In this document: in pieces, positions 8,656 through 61,791 of the stretch
Position numbering within the stretch: the first letter of the stretch is position 1
Layout of the letters: each line of letters starts with the position of its first letter
DNA from: an archaeon GW2011_AR5
GTDB lineage: Archaea > Aenigmatarchaeota > Aenigmatarchaeia > GW2011-AR5
Assembly: GCA_000806115.1 (NCBI GenBank)
Contig: JWKQ01000002.1
Span: 174,551 to 238,550, forward strand
DNA length: 64,000 nucleotides
Reading direction: 5' to 3'
Notes under the pieces: generated by a model
Told to the model about the DNA's origin: nothing
Seen by the model: only the letters and a program-made list of their open reading frames with translations
Databases searched by the model: none
Position numbers and translations under genes: made by a program

Positions 8656-9270
8656 CTACGGTTTGTGCCTTGTTATCTGATAAAATGTCACGTCGCTTTC
8701 ATTGTCAACAACCGCCCATAGCATTCTTGCGCGTATATTGTGAGCAAGCCGCACGCTCCGCGAAAGTTCGGCAAAGGACATCGTGAAGTCCTCAGGAACC
8801 GAAAAAACTATCCATTTTGTGTGCTCCTTGGCGCTTTTTGGGCCTTTCTTAAGCTGTACCCCCCGTTCATATACGCGGAAATCGCACCCGAACTTGAAGC
8901 CTGTGCGCACGAGCAGCCCGCGCTCCCTCAAATCTTCATAAACGCGGTATTTATGCGGAAATCTTTTATCTATTGAACACGCATGGTCATAAAGTTCCTT
9001 AAATGTTAGGAGTTTTCCGAGCGAAGAGACCCTTATCCTCCCGCGCTTCAGAAGAAGTGTCGCTTCGACCATGGCAAGTTCAAGCCTTTCGCCGAGCTCC
9101 TTGCCGTAATATCCCGGCTCATAAACATGTTCGCGGTTTTCCGTTGCTATTACCTTGTCCTCGGCAAGGATAGTGTCAACCACTATCTTCACAGGTTCCG
9201 GCTCGATGTATTCGTTGCCGACATCTGCCTGTTCCATTGAATCTCCGGATTTTTTGTTCTTTTTTGACAT
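8656..9270 (-). CDS. endA: tRNA splicing endonuclease (catalytic subunit)
   Basis: VYEDLRERG..RTGFKFGCDFRVY (catalytic Tyr)..EH (His)..VRLAHNIR. Confidence 0.92.
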   Translation of the reverse strand: MSKKNKKSGDSMEQADVGNEYIEPEPVKIVVDTILAEDKVIATENREHVYEPGYYGKELGERLELAMVEATLLLKRGRIRVSSLGKLLTFKELYDHACSIDKRFPHKYRVYEDLRERGLLVRTGFKFGCDFRVYERGVQLKKGPKSAKEHTKWIVFSVPEDFTMSFAELSRSVRLAHNIRARMLWAVVDNESDVTFYQITRHKP

Positions 9271-17725: not shown

Positions 17726-17847
17726 TAATGTGAATCAAATAATCAATCGTGATATAATCAAGAACTTTTGATTCTTGTATTATAAATTTGATTCACTTAA
17801 AGCGTTCCAAGTTATACTATCCCCGATTCTTTACTTGGAGCGCTTTA
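17726..17847 (+). repeat. Family A element, degenerate, with nested mini-hairpin
   Basis: GTGAATCAAAT..ATTTGATTCAC then TAAAGCGTTCCAAGT..ACTTGGAGCGCTTTA; extra CAAGAA/TTCTTG hairpin in loop 1. Confidence 0.65.
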
Positions 17848-23778: not shown

Positions 23779-23851
23779 AATAGGAGCAGTAAAGCTTCGC
23801 TTTCTACAGATAAGGATAGTAATGCATTAGAAAGGAGTACCCTTTCTCGGC
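23779..23851. repeat. Imperfect direct repeat, copy 1 (3' of NUDIX gene)
   Basis: AATAGGAGCA..TAAGGATAGTAATGCATTAGAAAGGAGTACCCTTTCTCGGC. Confidence 0.75.
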
Positions 23852-24276: not shown

Positions 24277-24343
24277 AATAGGAGCAAGCGTAGCTTGCGA
24301 CTTAAGGAAAGTAAAGCCTTAGAAAGGAATACCCTTTCTCGGC
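24277..24343. repeat. Imperfect direct repeat, copy 2 (3' of thermosome gene)
   Basis: AATAGGAGCA..TAAGGAAAGTAAAGCCTTAGAAAGGAATACCCTTTCTCGGC. Confidence 0.75.
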
Positions 24344-26261: not shown

Positions 26262-26397
26262 TGGGCCGAATGAGATTTGAACTCATGACCTTCTGCTGGC
26301 TTAGACGTTTTCAGGCTATGCCAAGATGCTTTGATTTTGTTTGTTATCAAAGCACGTCATATAAGACAGATGCTCTACCAAGCTAAGCTACCGGCCC
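26262..26397 (-). tRNA. tRNA-Ile(TAT) with canonical 62-nt intron (26298-26359)
   Basis: GGGCCGG/TCGGCCC-A; TCTGT-CT-TAT-A|..|A-GCAGA; BHB helix CTTA/TAAG. Confidence 0.88.
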
Positions 26398-27568: not shown

Positions 27569-27641
27569 CAATGCGAAGCAAATGAATAATAATTGCGTAT
27601 TATAAATTTGCTTCGCTTAAAGCATTTTTTGAAATGCTTTA
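27569..27641 (+). repeat. Short Family A-like element (17726 subtype)
   Basis: GCGAAGCAAAT..TATTATAAATTTGCTTCGC-TTAAAGCATTT..AAATGCTTTA. Confidence 0.6.
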
Positions 27642-27674: not shown

Positions 27675-27769
27675 TATAGTGAACCCAGAAAATAAACAGG
27701 ACATGAATTCTGGGTTCACAGATAGTTCCCAAGGAATTAATATCAGTAATGTTTCCTTGGAGAACTATA
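27675..27769 (+). repeat. Family A double-hairpin element, followed by further units to ~27840
   Basis: 95 bp, nearly identical to 628 and 35605; followed by TATAACCCAGAAA..TTTTTGGGTTATA and TATAGTGAACCCGCAAA. Confidence 0.9.
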
Positions 27770-34544: not shown

Positions 34545-35510
34545 ATGAAAGCGCTTGTAGCAAGAAGCCCGGCGGGGTTTTTTGCCTTTTCCGAGAACGG
34601 AGAGCTTCTTTACTATAAGCTATGGAACCAGAAAACAGCCCTCGAGAAGTTCGCTTCCAGGGAATTGGACAGGGATTTCATTGCGGGGCTGTCAGGCTAC
34701 ACGCTGGAAGAGTCGCCCAAGGCATATGGTTTTCTGCGAAAAAACTTCCGCGAATATGCAAAGACGCTCGGTTTTGCCAAGGACGACGGCGAGCTGAACG
34801 AATTTCTCTCGGGTTTCTCCATTGGACTGTCAAAGAGGAATCTCATGGGCACCATAGGCAGGGACCGCCTTGTCGTTCAGTCTGTACGTTCGCTGGACGA
34901 CATCAGCCGCGCGGTTAACGTATTTCTTGAGAGACTCTACGAGTGGTTTTCGCTGCATTATCCCGAGATGAAAAATGCAAGCGTCAAGGACATAGTGCTC
35001 AAGCATGGCAGGAGGGACAACATTCCGGGCTTCAAGTCCAGCACAGGCGTGGACCTCGGCGAGGAGGACGAGAAAGCGGTGGCGGAGTTTGCCAAAGCCA
35101 TAGACGGACTGGAAAAGGAGAAGAAGCTCCTTGAGAAATACGTATCTTCCGCAATGAAGGAAATCGCGCCCAACTTTGCCGCGCTCGTCGACCCGCTTCT
35201 AGGGGCGCGGATTGTCGCGGCGGCGGGCTCGCTTGAAAAACTGGCAAGGATGCCTGCTTCAACAATACAGCTTCTCGGCGCAGAAAAAGCCCTGTTTCGT
35301 CATCTTCATCAGAAGGGAAAAAGCCCAAAGTACGGCATAATTTACAACTCGCCGCTGGTGCAGAACGCGGGCGAGCACAAGGGAAAAGTAGCAAGGATTT
35401 TATCTTCGAAGCTTATGCTGGCAGCGCGCATAGATTATTATTCCGGCAGGGACGAATCTGAAAAACTGAAACGCGAACTTGATGAGGAGATAAGGAAGGT
35501 AAAAATATGA
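34545..35510 (+). CDS. nop5: Nop5/Nop56 C/D box RNP protein
   Basis: EWFSLHYPE, MPASTIQLLGAEKALFRHL, PKYGII. Confidence 0.92.
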   Translation: MKALVARSPAGFFAFSENGELLYYKLWNQKTALEKFASRELDRDFIAGLSGYTLEESPKAYGFLRKNFREYAKTLGFAKDDGELNEFLSGFSIGLSKRNLMGTIGRDRLVVQSVRSLDDISRAVNVFLERLYEWFSLHYPEMKNASVKDIVLKHGRRDNIPGFKSSTGVDLGEEDEKAVAEFAKAIDGLEKEKKLLEKYVSSAMKEIAPNFAALVDPLLGARIVAAAGSLEKLARMPASTIQLLGAEKALFRHLHQKGKSPKYGIIYNSPLVQNAGEHKGKVARILSSKLMLAARIDYYSGRDESEKLKRELDEEIRKVKI

Positions 35511-36334
35511 AAGAAATATTTTCCGGCGTATTCAGGGACGGAAACAGGGTTTACACGGCTAATCTTAACCCCGGGAAGAGCGTCTACGGAGAAAAACTGC
35601 TGGATATAGTGAACCCAGAAAAGAAACACGACATGAATTCTGGGTTCACAGATAGTTCCCAAGGAAATAATACAAGAAAGAACGAAGTTCTTTCTGTACA
35701 GCAAGAATCGAAGATTCTTGCTCGTATCCATAATGTTTCCTTGGAGAACTATAAACAGGCAGACGCAAAACAAACAGACGCCGAAGGCGTCATGCAGCTC
35801 AGAGAATGGGATCCGAGAAGAAGCAAACTCGGCGCCGCTATAACAAACGGCTTGAAGGAATTGCCTGTCAAGCCGGGAAGCGTAGTTCTTTACCTTGGAG
35901 CTTCGACAGGCACCACAATTTCTCACGTCAGCGATATTGTAGGAAAAGACGGTTTTGTTTATGGCATTGAGTTTGCAGAGAGAGTTCTGAGGAATCTTCT
36001 GGACCTGGCGAACCGAAGAAAGAACATAGCGTCGATGCTCGGCGACGCAAGAAAGACGGAACAATACAGGTGGGTTGAGGAATGCGATGTTGTGTTCTGC
36101 GACATAGCAGATCCCCAGGAAACGGAGATAGCAATCCGCAACTGCGAGTTCCTGAAGAAGGGCGGATACCTGATGATAGCGATAAAATCCCAGAGCATAG
36201 ACGTCACGAAGAAACCGAAAGACGTGTACGAACAGGAGAAAAACAAGCTGGAGAAGGCAGGCTTCAGGATTATACAGATGATTGACCTTGAGCCGCACGA
36301 AGAGAAGCATGCCATGATTGTTGCAAAGAAGTGA
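35507..36334 (+). CDS. flpA: Fibrillarin (2'-O-methyltransferase) with ~60-aa repeat-derived insertion
   Basis: PGKSVYGEKL..[insert]..REWDPRRSKL, VLYLGASTGTTISHVSD, IKSQSID. Confidence 0.93.
   Translation: MKEIFSGVFRDGNRVYTANLNPGKSVYGEKLLDIVNPEKKHDMNSGFTDSSQGNNTRKNEVLSVQQESKILARIHNVSLENYKQADAKQTDAEGVMQLREWDPRRSKLGAAITNGLKELPVKPGSVVLYLGASTGTTISHVSDIVGKDGFVYGIEFAERVLRNLLDLANRRKNIASMLGDARKTEQYRWVEECDVVFCDIADPQETEIAIRNCEFLKKGGYLMIAIKSQSIDVTKKPKDVYEQEKNKLEKAGFRIIQMIDLEPHEEKHAMIVAKK
35605..35753 (+). repeat. Family A element inserted in frame in fibrillarin (149 bp; two extra nested GAA-loop hairpins)
   Basis: Matches 27675 and 628; removing 147 bp (leaving one TA) keeps the frame. Confidence 0.92.
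35762..35797 (+). repeat. Family B element in fibrillarin
   Basis: GACGCAAAACAAACA-GACGCC-GAA-GGCGTC-ATGCAG, encoding DAKQTDAEGVMQ. Confidence 0.8.
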
Positions 36335-38054: not shown

Positions 38055-40943
38055 CTATTCGTATATTTTTTGCAGCGTCTCTATTTTGAAAGAGACTTTT
38101 TCGTCCTCCAGCTGCACCTGTCCCGTAGGCTTCTCTATGGGGCCGAATATTATGTTCTTGGCGCCGACCTTGTCTCGTATCTCTCTTTCAAACTCCTGCA
38201 TGGAGTCGTTGTCAAGGTAAAGGACAATCTTGTCTTCGACAATGAGTTTCTGCAGTTTCCTGTGGCTCTGGATTTCCCTAAGAAGTTCGCGCATCAGAGC
38301 CTCCGCCTTGAGCACGTTCTTGCTCACATATACTGTGCCCTTGGAGAAAGCTTTCGAGTAGCCTTCAGATTTTCCATGCGAAATATATTTTGAATTTGTC
38401 ATGTTCTTCAGGACCTTTTCAAACGTTATGAGGCAGCCCTTCACGGTTTCATCGTCGCTTTCGATGTAAACGTTCTCCACGGGCCATCTTATCTTTACGT
38501 TGTTCTCCTTTCTTACTGCGTTGGCAGTCTCGATTATTTCCTGGACTATTTCCATCTCTTTCTCAATCTGCGGGTTTGCGTATTTCTTGTAAGGCTTCGG
38601 CCATTTGCACATGTGGACGCTCTCTTCCTTTCCGAGCTCCCCGATCTGATAAACGTGTTCCGCGAAGAACGGGCATGCGGGCGCAAGAAGTTTCGAGCAC
38701 TCTTTTGCAACCTCGAAGAGCGCGAACATTGCCGATTGCTTGTCGCTTCCGGAGTATGTCGGCCATACGCGATCCCTTACCATCTTGATGTATACCCGCG
38801 AGAAGTCATTCAGCATGAAGTTGGTTATGGCGTTAACCGCCTTGTGTATGTTGTAGGTTCTGTAATGTTTCGTAACTTCCTCTATCAGGTTGTTGAGGCG
38901 CGAGAGTATCCATGCGTCCTCAGGCTCCAGGTCTTTCACTTTTTTCGCTTTCGGGGCGTAGCTCTTGACATAATTGTAGGTGTTCTCGAGAACCATGAAT
39001 GATTTCGCTATGGCGTCTACATCAGTCCACTTGAAATAGAAATCCTCCCACGGAGCCGACGAGAGCAGGTAGAGGCGAAGCACGTCGCGACCGTACTTGT
39101 CTATGACTTCCTCGGGCGATATTATGTTGCCCTTGCTCTTGGACATCTTGCTGCCGTGCGCATCGAGAGTGAATCCGTGAAAAAGTATGTTCTTGAACGG
39201 CGCCTTGTTGAATGTTATGACGCCGGTTATGAGCTGCGAGTTCCACCAGCCCCTTATCTGGTCGGGACCTTCTATGTTCAGGTCAGCTGGCCACATATTC
39301 TCGAAAAGCTCCTTCCTGTTCGGATAGCCGAGCGATGCCCAGCTTGCAAGTCCCGAGTCAAACCATACGTCCAGTACGTCATGAATGCGGCTCATTTCTT
39401 TCCCGCATTTGCAGGGAAGCCTGATATCGTCTATGTAAGGCCTGTGCAAATCCTTCAAAGTGTAAGACGCAGATTGCATGACGCCTTTGGCGTCTTTCTG
39501 TTGTGCGTCAGTCAGTTTCGGAAGCTCGTTTGATGAGCCGATTATTTTTACCTCTCCACAGCTGCATGTCCATATCGGCAGCGGTATTCCCCAGTAGCGC
39601 TGCCTGGATATCGGCCAGTCGCCCAGGCTGTTCAGCCAGTTCTCGAAGCGCTGTCCGGCCCATTCAGGATACCATTTTACTTTTTTGTTCTCCTTGAGCA
39701 GTTCCTTCCTGATTTGCGTAACCTTGAAAAACCATTGTGTGACTGCCATCTCAAGGAGCGGCGAGCTGCACCGCCAGCAGAGCGGGTAGTCGTGAGTCAC
39801 TTTTTCCTCGTGCAGAAGAAGGTTTCGTTCTTTTAGTATGTCAATTATCTTTCTGTCTGCAGTCTTGGCAAAAATCCCCGCAAACTGCCCGCATGTTTCG
39901 TTGAATGTTCCGTCAAGTTTGAGCGGCGAGATTATTGACAGTCCGTTCTCCACGCCCACTTTATAGTCTTCCTGGCCGAAACCCGGTGCAGTGTGAACCA
40001 GCCCCGTGCCCGATTCCAGCTCAACATACTGTTCTGAAAGCACAACGCGGTGTTTTACAGGTTCCTGAAACTTGAATATGTCGATGAGTGGGTGCTCGTA
40101 CTCGAGCCCGTCAAGCTTCTTGCCTTTCATCGTTCCGATTATCTTATAGCTAGTCACGCCGGCACGCTTCATCACGTCGTCCATCAGGACTTTCGCCATT
40201 ATCAGTGTTTCTTTGCCAACTTTCACCTTCACGTAGTCTGCAGAGGGCTTCGCCATTATCCCCGTGTTGGACGGCAGCGTCCACGGCGTGGTTGTCCATA
40301 TTAGCAGAAAGCCATCCTTTGTAGGGAATTTTACATAGACCGACGGGTCTGACACCTTTGTATACTCGATTTCATTGTATGCTACGGCAGTCTCGCAGTG
40401 CGGGCAGACATGCACGGGATAAAGTCCCTGGTAAAGCAGACCTTTCTCGAATGCTATCTTGAACGTGTGCCACGCCCCTTCTATGTATTCGTTGTCGAGG
40501 GTAAGGTACGGGTTCTTCCAGTCCATCCACACGCCCAAGTTCGCGAACTGCTGGTTCATGATGTCTATGTATTTCGTGGCAAATTTCCTGCATTCGTGCA
40601 CGAATTTCTCTATGCCGAGCTTCTCTATGTCGCTCTTCGATTTTATCTGAAAATCTTTCTCAACTTTGTTCTCTATCGGCAGGCCGTGCGTATCGTAGCC
40701 GGGCTGGTCCCACACGTCGAATCCGCTCATCCTCCAGAATCGGATGTATGTGTCCTTGAGAATCTTGTTCCACGCAGTTCCCATGTGTATGGAGCCTGTT
40801 GCATAAGGAGGACCGTCAAGAAAATAGAACTTTTTCCGGGAACTGCCTGACGCTCCGCGCCCTTTTGACGACTCTTTCAGCTTTTCGTATATACTCCTGG
40901 CTTCCCAAAAGCGTTTTATTTCTTCCTCATGCGACTTGTTCAT
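38055..40943 (-). CDS. ileS: Isoleucyl-tRNA synthetase
   Basis: DGPPYATGSIHMG, WTTTPWTLP, ISRQRYWG, DQIRGW, KMSKS. Confidence 0.97.
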   Translation of the reverse strand: MNKSHEEEIKRFWEARSIYEKLKESSKGRGASGSSRKKFYFLDGPPYATGSIHMGTAWNKILKDTYIRFWRMSGFDVWDQPGYDTHGLPIENKVEKDFQIKSKSDIEKLGIEKFVHECRKFATKYIDIMNQQFANLGVWMDWKNPYLTLDNEYIEGAWHTFKIAFEKGLLYQGLYPVHVCPHCETAVAYNEIEYTKVSDPSVYVKFPTKDGFLLIWTTTPWTLPSNTGIMAKPSADYVKVKVGKETLIMAKVLMDDVMKRAGVTSYKIIGTMKGKKLDGLEYEHPLIDIFKFQEPVKHRVVLSEQYVELESGTGLVHTAPGFGQEDYKVGVENGLSIISPLKLDGTFNETCGQFAGIFAKTADRKIIDILKERNLLLHEEKVTHDYPLCWRCSSPLLEMAVTQWFFKVTQIRKELLKENKKVKWYPEWAGQRFENWLNSLGDWPISRQRYWGIPLPIWTCSCGEVKIIGSSNELPKLTDAQQKDAKGVMQSASYTLKDLHRPYIDDIRLPCKCGKEMSRIHDVLDVWFDSGLASWASLGYPNRKELFENMWPADLNIEGPDQIRGWWNSQLITGVITFNKAPFKNILFHGFTLDAHGSKMSKSKGNIISPEEVIDKYGRDVLRLYLLSSAPWEDFYFKWTDVDAIAKSFMVLENTYNYVKSYAPKAKKVKDLEPEDAWILSRLNNLIEEVTKHYRTYNIHKAVNAITNFMLNDFSRVYIKMVRDRVWPTYSGSDKQSAMFALFEVAKECSKLLAPACPFFAEHVYQIGELGKEESVHMCKWPKPYKKYANPQIEKEMEIVQEIIETANAVRKENNVKIRWPVENVYIESDDETVKGCLITFEKVLKNMTNSKYISHGKSEGYSKAFSKGTVYVSKNVLKAEALMRELLREIQSHRKLQKLIVEDKIVLYLDNDSMQEFEREIRDKVGAKNIIFGPIEKPTGQVQLEDEKVSFKIETLQKIYE
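39466..39509 (-). repeat. Family B element in frame in IleRS
   Basis: Reverse complement GACGCA-CAACAGAAA-GACGCC-AAA-GGCGTC-ATGCAATC-TGCGTC, encoding DAQQKDAKGVMQSAS. Confidence 0.82.
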
Positions 40944-40977
40944 GTTTAACACTTTCTAAATAAATGATTAAAAGGGG

Positions 40978-54557: not shown

Positions 54558-56078
54558 ATGAAGATGAAAGCAAAGGTTCTCCCGTTGAACGCCGGCGGGA
54601 AGATGATAGGAATAATCAACGAGAAAGACGCCCTTGAGCTTGGCGTTCATCCGCTTGACAAGATAGTTATGACAAGGGGGCCGAAGAAAGCAACGCTCAC
54701 TGTCGACACAACCAAGAATTTTGTAAAGCGCGGCACGATCTTGCTCTACGACGATGTGAAAGAAGTCATGCATATCAGGAGCGGCGATGCAGTGCATGTC
54801 GAGCCGAGAATGCCGCTCGTGAGCAAGGCTTACATAAGGAAAAAAACTGACGGCAGAGAGCTAAGTTATCTGGAATTGAGGGCGATAGTAGACGACGTCA
54901 TAGCGCGCAATTTAAACGATCTGGAGCTTGCGTCCTTCATCACCGCGCTTCACATACACGGCTTAACACTTAACGAGAGCATTGATTTCTCCAAGGCTAT
55001 GATAGAAACCGGAAAGAGCCTTAAGTTTCCGGGCACGGTAGTCGACAAGCATTCCATAGGCGGTGTGCCGGGGGACAAAACCTCGATGCTGGTGGTGCCG
55101 ATAATTGCCGCTTCCGGACTTACAATACCGAAAACATCCTCGCGTTCCATAACATCGCCTTCCGGCACCGCTGACAGGATGGAAATACTTGCGCCTGTCG
55201 ATCTGCATATTGACGACATAAAGAGGGTTGTGAAGAGAACGAAAGGATGTCTGGTATGGGGAGGATCTGTCGACATCGCCCCGGCAGATGATCTTTTCAT
55301 ACGCATAGAGCACCCGCTCGGCCTTGACCCGCTGCTCCTGCCGTCGGTGATGAGCAAGAAAAAATCCGTCGGGTGCAAGTATCTTGTGATAGACATACCG
55401 ACAGGTGATACAAAAATCCATACCAAAGAGGATGCGGAAAAACTGGCCCGTGATTTCATAGCAATGGGGAGGAGCCTAGGAATAAAGGTTGACTGCGCAA
55501 TCACGCGCGGAGACCAGCCTGTAGGCTACGCCGTCGGTCCGGCTTTGGAGGCAAGGGAGGCGCTGGAGGTTATCATGAACGTGCAACAGACTGACGCCAA
55601 AGGCGTCGTGCAACGCAGCGACGTCTTCGACAAAGCGGCCTCGGTAGCAGGCGTACTGCTCAGAATGGCAGGCAAAGGTAACAAGAAAATAGCGGAGCTT
55701 ATGATAAAAAGCGGAAAAGCTGAAAAGAAGCTGCGGGAAATAATAGATGCGCAGGGCGGGAATCCTGGCGTGAAACCTGGGGATATAGAAGTCGGCGCCT
55801 TCAGCTTCAGGGTACGTTCGAAAACCGGCGGAACTGTTTCAACCATCAGCAACGCAGCGCTTGTCGAAATCTGCCGCACTTCCGGCACGCCGAAAGACCG
55901 CGGCGCAGGCGTTCTTCTGAACAAGAAGATCGGTGATCCGGTGCGCAGGGGAGAAGTTCTCTTCACAATTTTTGCTGAGAAGCGCCGGAAGCTGAACTCT
56001 GCGGTAAAAACTTCAAAATCCTGCGAGGTGTACGGAATTCTGACGGGAAAAAGAAGCATGCTTGTTGAGACTGTGTGA
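54558..56078 (+). CDS. AMP phosphorylase
   Basis: DKHSIGGVPGDKT, PKTSSRSITSPSGTAD, IDIPTG, GPALEAREAL. Confidence 0.93.
   Translation: MKMKAKVLPLNAGGKMIGIINEKDALELGVHPLDKIVMTRGPKKATLTVDTTKNFVKRGTILLYDDVKEVMHIRSGDAVHVEPRMPLVSKAYIRKKTDGRELSYLELRAIVDDVIARNLNDLELASFITALHIHGLTLNESIDFSKAMIETGKSLKFPGTVVDKHSIGGVPGDKTSMLVVPIIAASGLTIPKTSSRSITSPSGTADRMEILAPVDLHIDDIKRVVKRTKGCLVWGGSVDIAPADDLFIRIEHPLGLDPLLLPSVMSKKKSVGCKYLVIDIPTGDTKIHTKEDAEKLARDFIAMGRSLGIKVDCAITRGDQPVGYAVGPALEAREALEVIMNVQQTDAKGVVQRSDVFDKAASVAGVLLRMAGKGNKKIAELMIKSGKAEKKLREIIDAQGGNPGVKPGDIEVGAFSFRVRSKTGGTVSTISNAALVEICRTSGTPKDRGAGVLLNKKIGDPVRRGEVLFTIFAEKRRKLNSAVKTSKSCEVYGILTGKRSMLVETV
55579..55625 (+). repeat. Family B element in frame in AMP phosphorylase
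   Basis: GCAACAGACT-GACGCC-AAA-GGCGTC-GTGCAA, encoding VQQTDAKGVVQRS. Confidence 0.8.
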
Positions 56079-59394: not shown

Positions 59395-59505
59395 GCCGAC
59401 GTCGCATAGCTTGGTATTGCACCAGAGTATTAGTTACGGCTAATAAGGTGATTCTCGAAAACTGGCGTCCGAAAGGACTTGCAGGTTCAAATCCTGCCGT
59501 CGGCG
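59395..59505 (+). tRNA. tRNA-Ser(CGA) with intron at 30/31 (59426-59452)
   Basis: GCCGACG/CGTCGGC; CCAG|T-CT-CGA-AA-ACTGG; long variable arm; BHB CACC/GGTG. Confidence 0.88.
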
Positions 59506-60013: not shown

Positions 60014-60130
60014 GCCGGCGTGGCAGAGCTTGGTAAATGCGCTAGCCTTGAGAGCTAGAGTGCCTTTGGCACATGCAGGTAATTGATTAGTCTCGGCTAA
60101 TCGATCTGAATTCAAATCCTGCCGCCGGCG
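60014..60130 (+). tRNA. tRNA-Ser(TGA) with T-loop intron (~60081-60111)
   Basis: GCCGGCG/CGCCGGC; CTAGC-CTTGAGA-GCTAG; GCAGG-T|..|TCAAAT-CCTGC. Confidence 0.88.
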
Positions 60131-61689: not shown

Positions 61690-61791
61690 GCGATGGTAGT
61701 CTAGCCGGTAGGACACGACCTTGCCAAGGTTGAGATTTGCGCTGTATTGCAGCGCATCCGACATACCCGGGTTCGAATCCCGGCCGTCGCA
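61690..61791 (+). tRNA. tRNA-Gly(GCC) with variable-loop intron (61735-61764)
   Basis: GCGATGG/CCGTCGC-A; CGACC-TTGCCAA-GGTTG; BHB GTTG/CGAC. Confidence 0.88.

Follow-up and report, generated by a model that had tools for sequence, protein, structure and literature searches.

Two in-frame repeat elements in an Aenigmatarchaeota fibrillarin gene and their probable translation as a surface loop

Fibrillarin, the catalytic subunit (2'-O-methyltransferase) of the box C/D RNP, is among the most conserved archaeal and eukaryotic proteins, and together with Nop5 it forms a textbook partner pair. The fibrillarin gene of GW2011_AR5, a DPANN archaeon from groundwater, contains two different repeat elements, which raises the question of what becomes of them in the gene product. 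The window analyzed here is a stretch of 64,000 nt of this organism (JWKQ01000002.1, positions 174,551-238,550, forward strand); its own genome, an assembly of 858 kb that is 87.6% complete, is labelled G000. A first-pass annotation had noted two different in-frame repeats adding about 60 residues, and had offered as alternatives a translated insertion or an element excised at the RNA level. Our analysis lends better support to translation, and excision was left without support. We put the probability that both in-frame inserts are translated and tolerated as a disordered surface loop of fibrillarin at roughly two in three, as judged from the sequence and from comparison with relatives.

An insert at the tip of a hairpin in the N-terminal lobe

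The fibrillarin gene (35507..36334, + strand) is a stop-free ORF of 275 aa that matches Pfam PF01269 with 262.4 bits (cut-off 27; E 3.3e-78). Its start overlaps by 4 nt (ATGA) the stop of the intact nop5 gene directly upstream (Nop5/Nop56-like, 34545..35510, + strand, 321 aa; Pfam Nop PF01798, E 3.2e-54). It is the single full-length fibrillarin match in the assembly, the remaining matches being copies of one of the repeats (Family A, described below), and no second fibrillarin gene was found in these 87.6% of the genome. All 53 columns that are invariant across 19 aligned fibrillarins, the window's included, are kept, and methyltransferase activity and Nop5 binding are probably retained.

The protein exceeds that of four congeners (213 aa) by 62 residues; one further congener has 214 aa, counted from the aligned Met. 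The extra sequence is confined to the tip of a single beta-hairpin in the N-terminal lobe, where about 65 residues without counterpart in relatives separate YGEKLL (to residue 32) from REWDPRRSKL (from residue 99), the interval in which the first-pass annotation had placed a stop-free insert. For 34 of the 39 other genomes the fibrillarin match (open frames of 162-251 codons) covers query residues 1-32/38 plus ~93-99 to 275 and bypasses residues ~33-96; in three of the 39, all incomplete genomes, fibrillarin was not found. The hairpin comprises 2-7 residues in the 19 aligned relatives' loci, with the exception of the congener G004, which carries Family B only. The alignment proposed at first pass shows the extra segment to be absent from the relatives aligned, apart from this Family B copy. 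All length changes at the site are multiples of three (Family A +147 nt, and Family B +57 nt in G004).

A metagenome scan gave 42 loci encoding fibrillarin relatives, with matches of at most 231 codons, too short for the full insert. In a search of representatives, most of the best 150 matches fall into two stretches that bypass the insert, and the eight longer or single-stretch matches among them, once aligned, have their extra length at the N-terminus and none at the hairpin. Among 41 genome-collection stretches with the Family A pattern there was no fibrillarin and no gene like P0003 (see below), and an Rfam scan of the window gave seven tRNA matches only, neither repeat being matched by any family.

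Anatomy of the two repeats and their support in DNA

Family A is a hairpin-rich, MITE-like, non-coding element with 46 loci of 38-211 nt in G000 (nhmmer census). Its 26 complete copies measure 90-97 or 146-155 nt; the long forms are of two different kinds, and independent hairpin modules in series make up the body. The ends, TATAGT... (TATAGTGAAC...) and ...(A/G)CTATA, are inverted over about 6-7 nt, and each half folds into its own hairpin. The family reference is a standard 95-nt copy between ORFs (27675..27769, + strand). The observation that such a copy minus the duplicated TA is divisible by three holds for this modal length (7 of the 26 complete copies are 95 nt) and fails for many others, as length minus 2 is a multiple of three in 13 of the 26.

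In fibrillarin, a long-form Family A copy (35607..35753, + strand, residues 34-82) with ends TATAG...CTATA follows the left TA of a target-site duplication (35605..35606, + strand), which was defined by comparison with G004 and other congeners. With both TATA ends it spans 35605-35753 (149 nt), and the first 69 nt match the family (nhmmer E 6.5e-15). RNA folding and repeat analysis place hairpin 1 at ~35609-35650 and the outer arms of hairpin 2 at ~35655-35668 and ~35735-35748, with two small extra hairpins in its loop (~35675-35695 and ~35701-35724; all + strand). The fibrillarin copy shares 94% identity over 151 nt with another long-form copy, at C1:223508-223658. The proposal that removal of 147 bp, corresponding to a TA duplication, would preserve the frame is borne out exactly: excising 35607-35753 leaves GAT AAA CAG, colinear with GAA AAA CAG of G004, so that the net gain is 147 nt or 49 codons relative to this orthologous site, which is not an empty allele from the same population.

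The adjoining Family B copy (35754..35800, + strand; nhmmer E 7.6e-07) encodes residues ~84-98, QADAKQTDAEGVMQL. Its left outer arm GACGCA lies at 35762-35767 and its core hairpin GACGCCGAAGGCGTC at 35777-35791 (both + strand); most of the right outer arm is lost in comparison with G004 and with the protein fragment P0002. The right arm in G000 is 15 nt shorter than in G004, and the near-identical population represented by P0002 has 30 nt more.

Both junctions of the insert are present in public DNA runs. Exact Logan contigs, from runs of four study codes and with 0 differences, cover the left junction at 35325-35659 (X1, X2) and 35419-35659 (X4), and the right junction at 35729-35920 (X1, X2) and 35701-35880 (X6). 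Among the contig joints listed in the four runs, none lacks the element or represents an empty-site allele. The first-pass annotation had pointed to reads that fail to span the insertion as a sign against it; here each junction is exactly covered, although no single contig, all being short, extends across the entire insert. For this reason, and since the repeat has 10-100 times the depth of its flanks, one might suspect an assembly error that placed a repeat copy in the gene. The high depth is explained by the abundance of the family in the community, and against a misjoin stand the exact contigs that bridge both junctions in several runs and the independent record P0002 (a 203-aa fragment), in which Family A is joined to its own Family B variant and to fibrillarin by specific junction sequence. 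We therefore regard an assembly artefact as scarcely credible.

The N-terminal part of P0002 shows the same A and B arrangement in a slightly diverged second population, with three substitutions nearby, and this version is also present in an X4 contig. P0002 as a whole is a mosaic: this part resembles G000, and the remainder, beginning with KERKNIAAIK, matches G008 without differences (tree and three-way alignment). An apparent signal of purifying selection after insertion (changes between G000 and P0002 concentrated at variable columns, Fisher P 0.004) was rejected for that reason, and with it vanishes the apparent excess conservation of the 42 residues derived from Family A.

Fate of the insert in the gene product

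As both elements are multiples of three and free of stops in the frame used, the mRNA would be read straight through them. Several observations indirectly favor this translated reading: the open frame, the indels in multiples of three, the lack of a second gene in the 87.6%-complete assembly, the confidently predicted fold of the protein core around a low-confidence loop, and the frame bias of Family B described below. For Family A, the frame used in fibrillarin (F2) is open in 11 of the 26 complete copies, including the 94%-identical sibling, which sits upstream of the likely start of an ORF. An open frame through the element is hence not rare by chance, and no repair would have been needed after insertion.

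In the AlphaFold2 model (19-sequence alignment; mean pLDDT 82.8), ten-residue block means drop from 72-98 outside the insert to 42-54 over residues 41-90, and the insert is placed between strands 31-35 and 95-101. The model shows a Rossmann-fold lobe and a small N-terminal beta lobe, and Foldseek matches it to the solved fibrillarins 2NNW, 1G8A, 3PLA and 7SE6 (target-normalised TM 0.85-0.90). Structure prediction, one of the checks suggested at first pass, thus places the loop as a low-confidence excursion from the N-terminal-lobe hairpin next to a confident core. The fibrillarin N-terminal lobe is described as five antiparallel strands, and the Nop5 interface as lying around helix alpha4 of the C-terminal lobe (PMC7962484). 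With this placement of Nop5, the model suggests that the insert is surface-exposed and disturbs neither the catalytic Rossmann-fold lobe nor the helix that binds Nop5.

The sequence of events that we propose has three steps. A short nested palindrome (Family B) may have entered the DNA for the hairpin tip of the N-terminal lobe; a 147-nt MITE-like Family A element would then have inserted at a TA a few bases upstream of it, duplicating the TA; and the mRNA would be read through to give an enzyme in which some 62 additional hydrophilic residues form a flexible protrusion from the hairpin. The tryptic peptides predicted for the insert region are LLDIVNPEK, HDMNSGFTDSSQGNNTR, NEVLSVQQESK, IHNVSLENYK and QTDAEGVMQLR.

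At the RNA level the insert region is highly structured, with a predicted fold of -82.3 kcal/mol (z -10.3) that was equalled by none of 200 shuffles, and a 4-bp helix, GCUG/CAGC, closes the entire insert. Archaeal introns excised at bulge-helix-bulge (BHB) motifs occur in cbf5 of Crenarchaeota, and the present case resembles them in being a structured insert in an RNA-modification gene of a host with a splicing endonuclease. G000 encodes such an enzyme (PF01974, 92.8 bits, E 8.5e-27, C2:183233-183511), and several of the window's tRNA genes have spans of 102-136 nt, which suggest introns. Excision from the mRNA, for instance by this endonuclease, would yield a protein of normal length. The insert differs from BHB introns, however, in consisting of dispersed repeat families, in its open frame and in the lack of an in-frame BHB motif. 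A scan of all site pairs around the insert gave 143 candidates (4-bp central helix, two 3-nt bulges), none of which excises it in frame: a single candidate (35595/35791) brackets the insert, but its flanking helices measure 1 and 3 bp and it would remove 196 nt, a length not divisible by three; the in-frame candidates would delete the conserved YGEKLL or only part of Family A. Moreover, the open frame and the indels in multiples of three would be unnecessary if the insert were excised, and the Family B bias again argues for translation. We therefore consider excision very unlikely.

The run of about 190 nt of very stable hairpins could also hinder translation of the coding region, and Family A may be a recent hit that is slightly deleterious or inactivating, with a protein that is misfolded or poorly made and a gene heading for loss, or with a lineage that copes with little 2'-O-methylation. 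The copy is 94-96% identical to other copies and thus young, so that an inactivated gene would not yet show decay, and the 53 invariant residues that are kept say little in this respect. DPANN genomes are reduced, fibrillarin was not found in 3 of the 39 relatives (incomplete genomes), and the low-confidence prediction for the insert would fit a damaged protein. Against this, the insert is in frame and stop-free in a family of which 41 of 46 copies avoid ORFs, the same A and B arrangement occurs in the second population, no empty-site allele was seen in the four runs, and nop5 directly upstream is intact. On balance, a deleterious or inactivating insertion appears unlikely.

A further possibility is transcription from within the gene, with the Family A right end (...CTATAAA) serving as an archaeal promoter, so that the functional enzyme starts at Met96 (ATG 35792-35794) and the part upstream is dispensable. 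By position, a TATA-like sequence at 35750-35755 lies about 40 nt upstream of this in-frame ATG, many Family A copies are located just upstream of genes or tRNA genes, and promoters have been reported for Correia elements (PMC3184786). We give this little credence, since it leaves the open frame through the insert unexplained and since the N-terminal lobe is conserved in all relatives.

The translated reading is also consistent with the distribution of Family A. Despite a crude ORF map that covers 81-87% of each contig, 41 of the 46 loci lie between ORFs (binomial 1.5e-25), and the fibrillarin copy is the only one within a recognized G000 gene. This strong exclusion from coding sequence indicates that selection acts on such insertions, and the fibrillarin copy may survive because it is one of the few gene insertions that selection tolerates. 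The same selective filter would account for Family B in several other housekeeping genes in one preferred frame. Outside G000, P0003, a predicted esterase (PF00756), carries the same long-form Family A in the same frame, following a signal-peptide-like start. Three candidates for in-frame Family A in relatives (G009:C62, G007:C46 and G009:C37) were set aside, as the likely start codons of the long stop-to-stop frames that contain them are located downstream of the copies.

Family B in other proteins and relation to known repeats

Family B is a small nested palindrome with 16 loci of 27-57 nt in G000. Matches to its core GACGCCNNNGGCGTC number 14 in G000 and 27 in G011, a genome of another genus, against 0 for the reversed control in all 40 genomes. 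In an IleRS-like gene (38058-40955, - strand) a copy at 39466..39509 (- strand) adds 18 residues, LTDAQQKDAKGVMQSASY; 35753-35796 of the fibrillarin copy is 84% complementary to 39475-39518. In a thymidine/AMP-phosphorylase-like gene (54525-56075) the core at 55579..55612 (+ strand) adds about nine residues, QQTDAKGVV, and further in-frame hosts in G000 are ribosomal protein uL2, an ADP-forming acyl-CoA-synthetase-like (ACS-like) protein and an MBL-fold protein. The element has no counterpart in relatives for IleRS (20/20), the phosphorylase-like protein (19/19), uL2 (21/21) and the ACS-like protein (14/14), and it is absent from 15 of 16 relatives for the MBL-fold protein and from 18 of 19 loci for fibrillarin, G004 sharing both.

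Within Pfam-recognized G000 proteins, six of seven Family B copies are read as D-A-K/E-G-V. The same frame is used in G011 by 13 of 15 copies in long open frames (P 3e-5), and of the nine copies there with AAA/TTT or GAA/TTC loops, eight have K/E as the central residue and one has F. Without translation of the elements no bias of this kind would be expected, and it provides an argument, from sequence alone, that such repeats are translated.

The fibrillarin and MBL-fold sites are common to G000 and G004 and are not found in G009, the nearest relative of G004 in three proteins. A single origin of the fibrillarin copy in G000 and G004 was first read as inheritance; this was abandoned, as G009, without Family B, groups closest to G004 by pairwise identities and in a concatenated three-protein tree, in which over-long open frames supplied some of the rows and the position of G012 is odd. 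The shared site may reflect two insertions, a loss in G009 or recombination. It is conceivable, though doubtful, that Family B is an archaeal counterpart of the rickettsial palindromic elements (RPEs) whose frame bias and re-use of identical sites go beyond passive selection and are imposed by a mechanism of insertion or exchange, or by some role of the hairpin or peptide. If so, the fibrillarin hairpin would be a hot spot at which a MITE, too, came to insert later.

If the insert is translated, its 62 residues from two selfish repeats show how far the N-terminal lobe of fibrillarin can stretch, and the hairpin may be a permissive site usable for tagging the enzyme. With Family B lying in frame in six or more housekeeping genes of a 0.86-Mb DPANN genome, IleRS and uL2 among them, the concept of selfish DNA within proteins, for which Rickettsia is the main example, would extend to archaea with reduced genomes. 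Such repeats also give rise to spurious indels and chimeric contigs when genomes of Aenigmatarchaeota are assembled from metagenomes. A literature search returned no paper on coding palindromes or MITEs in this group; among the matches listed, the papers naming both Aenigmatarchaeota and 'palindromic' were defense-system studies.

Palindromic repeats with coding potential in Methanocaldococcus jannaschii are an archaeal precedent for repeats read within ORFs. Family A resembles the TA-duplicating MITEs Correia (CREE) and ERIC in its TA duplication, its TATAG...CTATA ends, its two size classes, the many copies beside gene starts and the lack of coding capacity; in contrast to these, its terminal inverted repeat is only about 6-7 nt, its body is a chain of hairpin modules, it has two long forms, and it is archaeal. 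Neither DDE_3 (PF13358) nor Y1_Tnp (PF01797), the two families searched for a cognate transposase, had a match in the 87.6%-complete G000. Correia elements are given as ~104-157 bp (PMC3184786), and in-frame intragenic copies of ERIC, BOX and other repeats are on record (PMC10969869, PMC3184786).

Family B shares with the REP/BIME elements a short GC-rich hairpin, flanking imperfect palindromes and CGTC in the stem, the tag of one REP superfamily (PMC3733652). REPs are extragenic by definition, whereas Family B is often intragenic and apparently translated, and no RAYT-type Y1_Tnp gene was found in G000 (87.6% complete). The comparison with RPEs made at first pass is apt, more for Family B, with its in-frame hosts and common peptide, than for Family A. 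RPEs are described as palindromic repeats in frame in unrelated housekeeping genes, with a conserved peptide and without counterpart in orthologues, and are presumed to occupy positions that the protein fold can accommodate (PMC10969869, PMC3184786). At the level of sequence features Family B is alike, with six G000 genes, one preferred frame and absence from orthologues; it differs in that RPEs are bacterial and ~105-146 bp long, whereas Family B is a nested REP-like palindrome of 27-57 nt in a DPANN archaeon. The fibrillarin of GW2011_AR5 would thus probably represent a new archaeal (Aenigmatarchaeota) variant of the known in-protein repeats.

Repeat-derived insert in the fibrillarin gene

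The fibrillarin gene (35507-36334; 275 aa; PF01269, E 3.3e-78) lies behind nop5 (34545-35510; PF01798, E 3.2e-54), with a 4-nt overlap between the nop5 stop and the fibrillarin start. The assembly to which the window belongs (three contigs, 858,244 bases, completeness 87.6%) yields no other full-length fibrillarin match; the remaining seven own-genome matches are repeat copies. A search of 39 further genomes from this order found the insert segment skipped in 34, where the match consists of query residues 1-32/38 and ~93-99 to 275, adjoining, in open frames of 162-251 codons. Counted from the aligned Met, fibrillarin has 213 residues in four congeners, 214 in one and 209 in one; in a 20-locus alignment, six congeners have 2 residues between YGEKLL and REWDP, and other genera have 3-7. 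No long insert was seen at this hairpin in the eight aligned sequences of the best 150 fibrillarin representatives. The in-frame excess of about 60 residues described in the first-pass annotation is confirmed at 62 residues, which derive from two repeat families, A and B. An antisense open frame of 290 codons (35438-36310, minus strand) spans fibrillarin and both repeats; we take it for a shadow ORF, wrongly preferred over the real gene by our crude gene map.

Read support at the insertion comes from exact Logan contigs across both junctions, from four public DNA sequencing runs with four different study codes: 35325-35659 in X1 and X2 and 35419-35659 in X4 on the left, 35729-35920 in X1 and X2 and 35701-35880 in X6 on the right. 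The runs are not fully independent, as they could stem from one campaign or contain the source sample itself. Fifteen of the 16 contig joints are internal to Family A and reflect short-form copies elsewhere, and none of these 15 removes the Family A element.

The insertion target can be reconstructed from the congener G004, which reads GTT GAA AAA CAG ACA GAC GCA where our genome reads CTG GAT-element-AAA CAG GCA GAC GCA. From this comparison, insertion of Family A created a TA duplication and lengthened the gene by 147 nt (49 codons, residues 34-82), which bears out the earlier proposal that removal of 147 bp with a TA duplication keeps the frame. Directly behind it lies Family B (35754-35800; core hairpin 35777-35791), which G004 carries complete at the same codon boundary, without Family A. 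The right arm of our copy lacks 15 nt, a public 203-aa fibrillarin fragment (P0002) has 30 nt more there, and all length differences among the three are multiples of three.

An AlphaFold2 model (19-sequence alignment; mean pLDDT 82.8) superposes on solved fibrillarins. Its ten-residue block means drop to 42-54 across residues 41-90, against 72-98 outside the insert. The loop, whose placement by structure prediction had been suggested, is predicted to leave the fold between strands 31-35 and 95-101, with a tentative helix at 64-89. As described in part of PMC7962484, the N-terminal lobe of fibrillarin is a small five-stranded sheet, and Nop5 binds around helix alpha4 in the C-terminal lobe.

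Family A and its exclusion from genes

Iterated nhmmer yielded 59 Family A hits in the genome, merged into 46 loci. The element starts with TATAGTGAAC, finishes with (A/G)CTATA and has a chain of hairpins as its body; complete copies measure 90-97 nt with two hairpins or 146-155 nt with four. Long forms are of two kinds, by the position of the two extra hairpins. The fibrillarin copy and a sibling of 94% identity (contig C1:223508-223658) have them within the loop of the second hairpin; in the other kind (C1:33970-34119, 100218-100363, 270034-270179, 434578-434726 and 438987-439133; contig C2:125882-126036) they are ~27 nt long, each end in GTA, and stand between the standard two. Family A looks modular, with TA-flanked hairpin units as building blocks. 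No transposase for either family was found with the two Pfam families searched. A related subfamily, scoring more weakly with the Family A profile, has the termini GTGAA...GCTTTAAA, not TATAG...CTATA (17777-17806 and 27597-27626; C1:244452-244541; C2:153368-153456, 192320-192394 and 304338-304425). A 41-nt direct repeat (23811-23851 and 24303-24343; 90% identical, copies 492 nt apart) is unrelated to both families.

Family A is strongly excluded from genes: 41 of the 46 loci lie between ORFs, three touch an ORF end and two are internal (fibrillarin, and a frame of 130 codons close to the end of a contig), with ORFs covering 81-87% of the contigs on a crude ORF map (P 1.5e-25). Nor is its structure adapted to coding. 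Of 26 complete copies, only 13 give a multiple of three once 2 is subtracted from the length, 11 are open in the frame that fibrillarin uses, and none is open in either of the two frames reading the terminal TAG. Given this exclusion, the fibrillarin copy is best read as a rare survivor of selection, with a length that is a multiple of three, an open hydrophilic frame and a permissive site. The insertion is young, so the conserved residues that were kept are no proof of function since then.

Public records with the Family A pattern come from relatives within Candidatus Aenigmatarchaeota (DPANN), mostly from groundwater. The public predicted esterase P0003 (351 aa, PF00756) carries a long form in the same frame as fibrillarin, directly behind a signal-peptide-like N-terminus; this may be a second in-frame case, from a different organism. 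One copy (626-724) precedes a tRNA gene (761-865) by 37 nt, and in relatives several copies sit immediately before likely start codons; from these positions, a promoter-like role of the element ends is conceivable.

Family B in coding frames

Family B has a nested palindromic structure (GACGCA, 9 nt, GACGCC-NNN-GGCGTC, 8-9 nt, TGCGTC; 57 nt at most with weaker outer arms) and occupies 16 loci in the genome. Beyond fibrillarin, it adds 18 residues to an IleRS-like gene (38058-40955, minus strand; absent in 20/20 relatives), 9 to a thymidine/AMP-phosphorylase-like gene (54525-56075, plus strand; 19/19), 9 to ribosomal protein uL2 (C1:276038-276784; 21/21), ~20 to an ADP-forming acyl-CoA-synthetase-like gene (C2:29254-30768; 14/14) and 9 to an MBL-fold gene (C1:265342-266343; absent in 15/16, shared with G004). 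Among 40 genomes the core is frequent in some of the same family (14 in our genome, 27 in G011, which represents another genus, 7 in G022, 6 in G010, 5 in G004) and missing from most others; a reversed-pattern control gave 0 in all 40.

The core is read as D-A-K/E-G-V in six of the seven Pfam-recognised host proteins. G011 has 15 of its 27 cores in open frames of 150 codons or more; 13 of these follow the D-A-x-G-V frame (P 3e-5), where x is K/E/S/N in 12 and F in one. As no core frame contains a stop, the bias is not mechanical; selection acting on a translated peptide would give such a pattern. Of the findings here, Family B is the more general and lends itself better to testing.

Family B occupies identical sites in two genes of our genome and G004, namely fibrillarin (35754-35800) and, at C1:265692-265719, the MBL-fold gene (loci L007 and L200 in G004; L003 and L198 in G009 for comparison). 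G009 lacks both inserts, although it is the closest to G004 in IleRS (83.7% identity), the phosphorylase-like protein (75.6%) and the fibrillarin core (80.9%). Recurrent insertion, loss or recombination are possible explanations. P0002, from a population closely related to ours, begins within Family A and is mosaic: the N-terminal part resembles our genome, and the C-terminal part has the same sequence as G008. Chimeric assembly across a conserved stretch is its probable origin, with natural recombination as the alternative. A selection test based on P0002 is invalid because of this mosaic structure. A 159-nt X4 contig has exactly the substitutions that set the N-terminal part of P0002 apart (T113S, K121Q, V125I) and departs from the window left of 35788, which fits the longer Family B of P0002.

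Probable translation and known in-frame repeats

The first-pass annotation had left two outcomes, translation of the insert or its excision from the RNA. Three features point to read-through: the frame stays open, indels come in multiples of three, and Family B shows its frame bias. For excision, a motif scan found no bulge-helix-bulge motif that would remove the insert in frame; a splicing endonuclease gene is present (8683-8961, minus strand). Separately, five tRNA matches (761-865, 26262-26397, 59395-59505, 60014-60130 and 61690-61791) are 102-136 nt long, far exceeding plain tRNA length, which suggests that these genes bear introns.

An archaeal precedent for in-frame repeats comes from a methanogen. 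Our literature search found no published account of such elements in Aenigmatarchaeota. In-frame repeat insertions are already known in bacteria, and the Family B pattern matches the one described for the Rickettsia palindromic elements, as set out in parts of PMC10969869 and PMC3184786.
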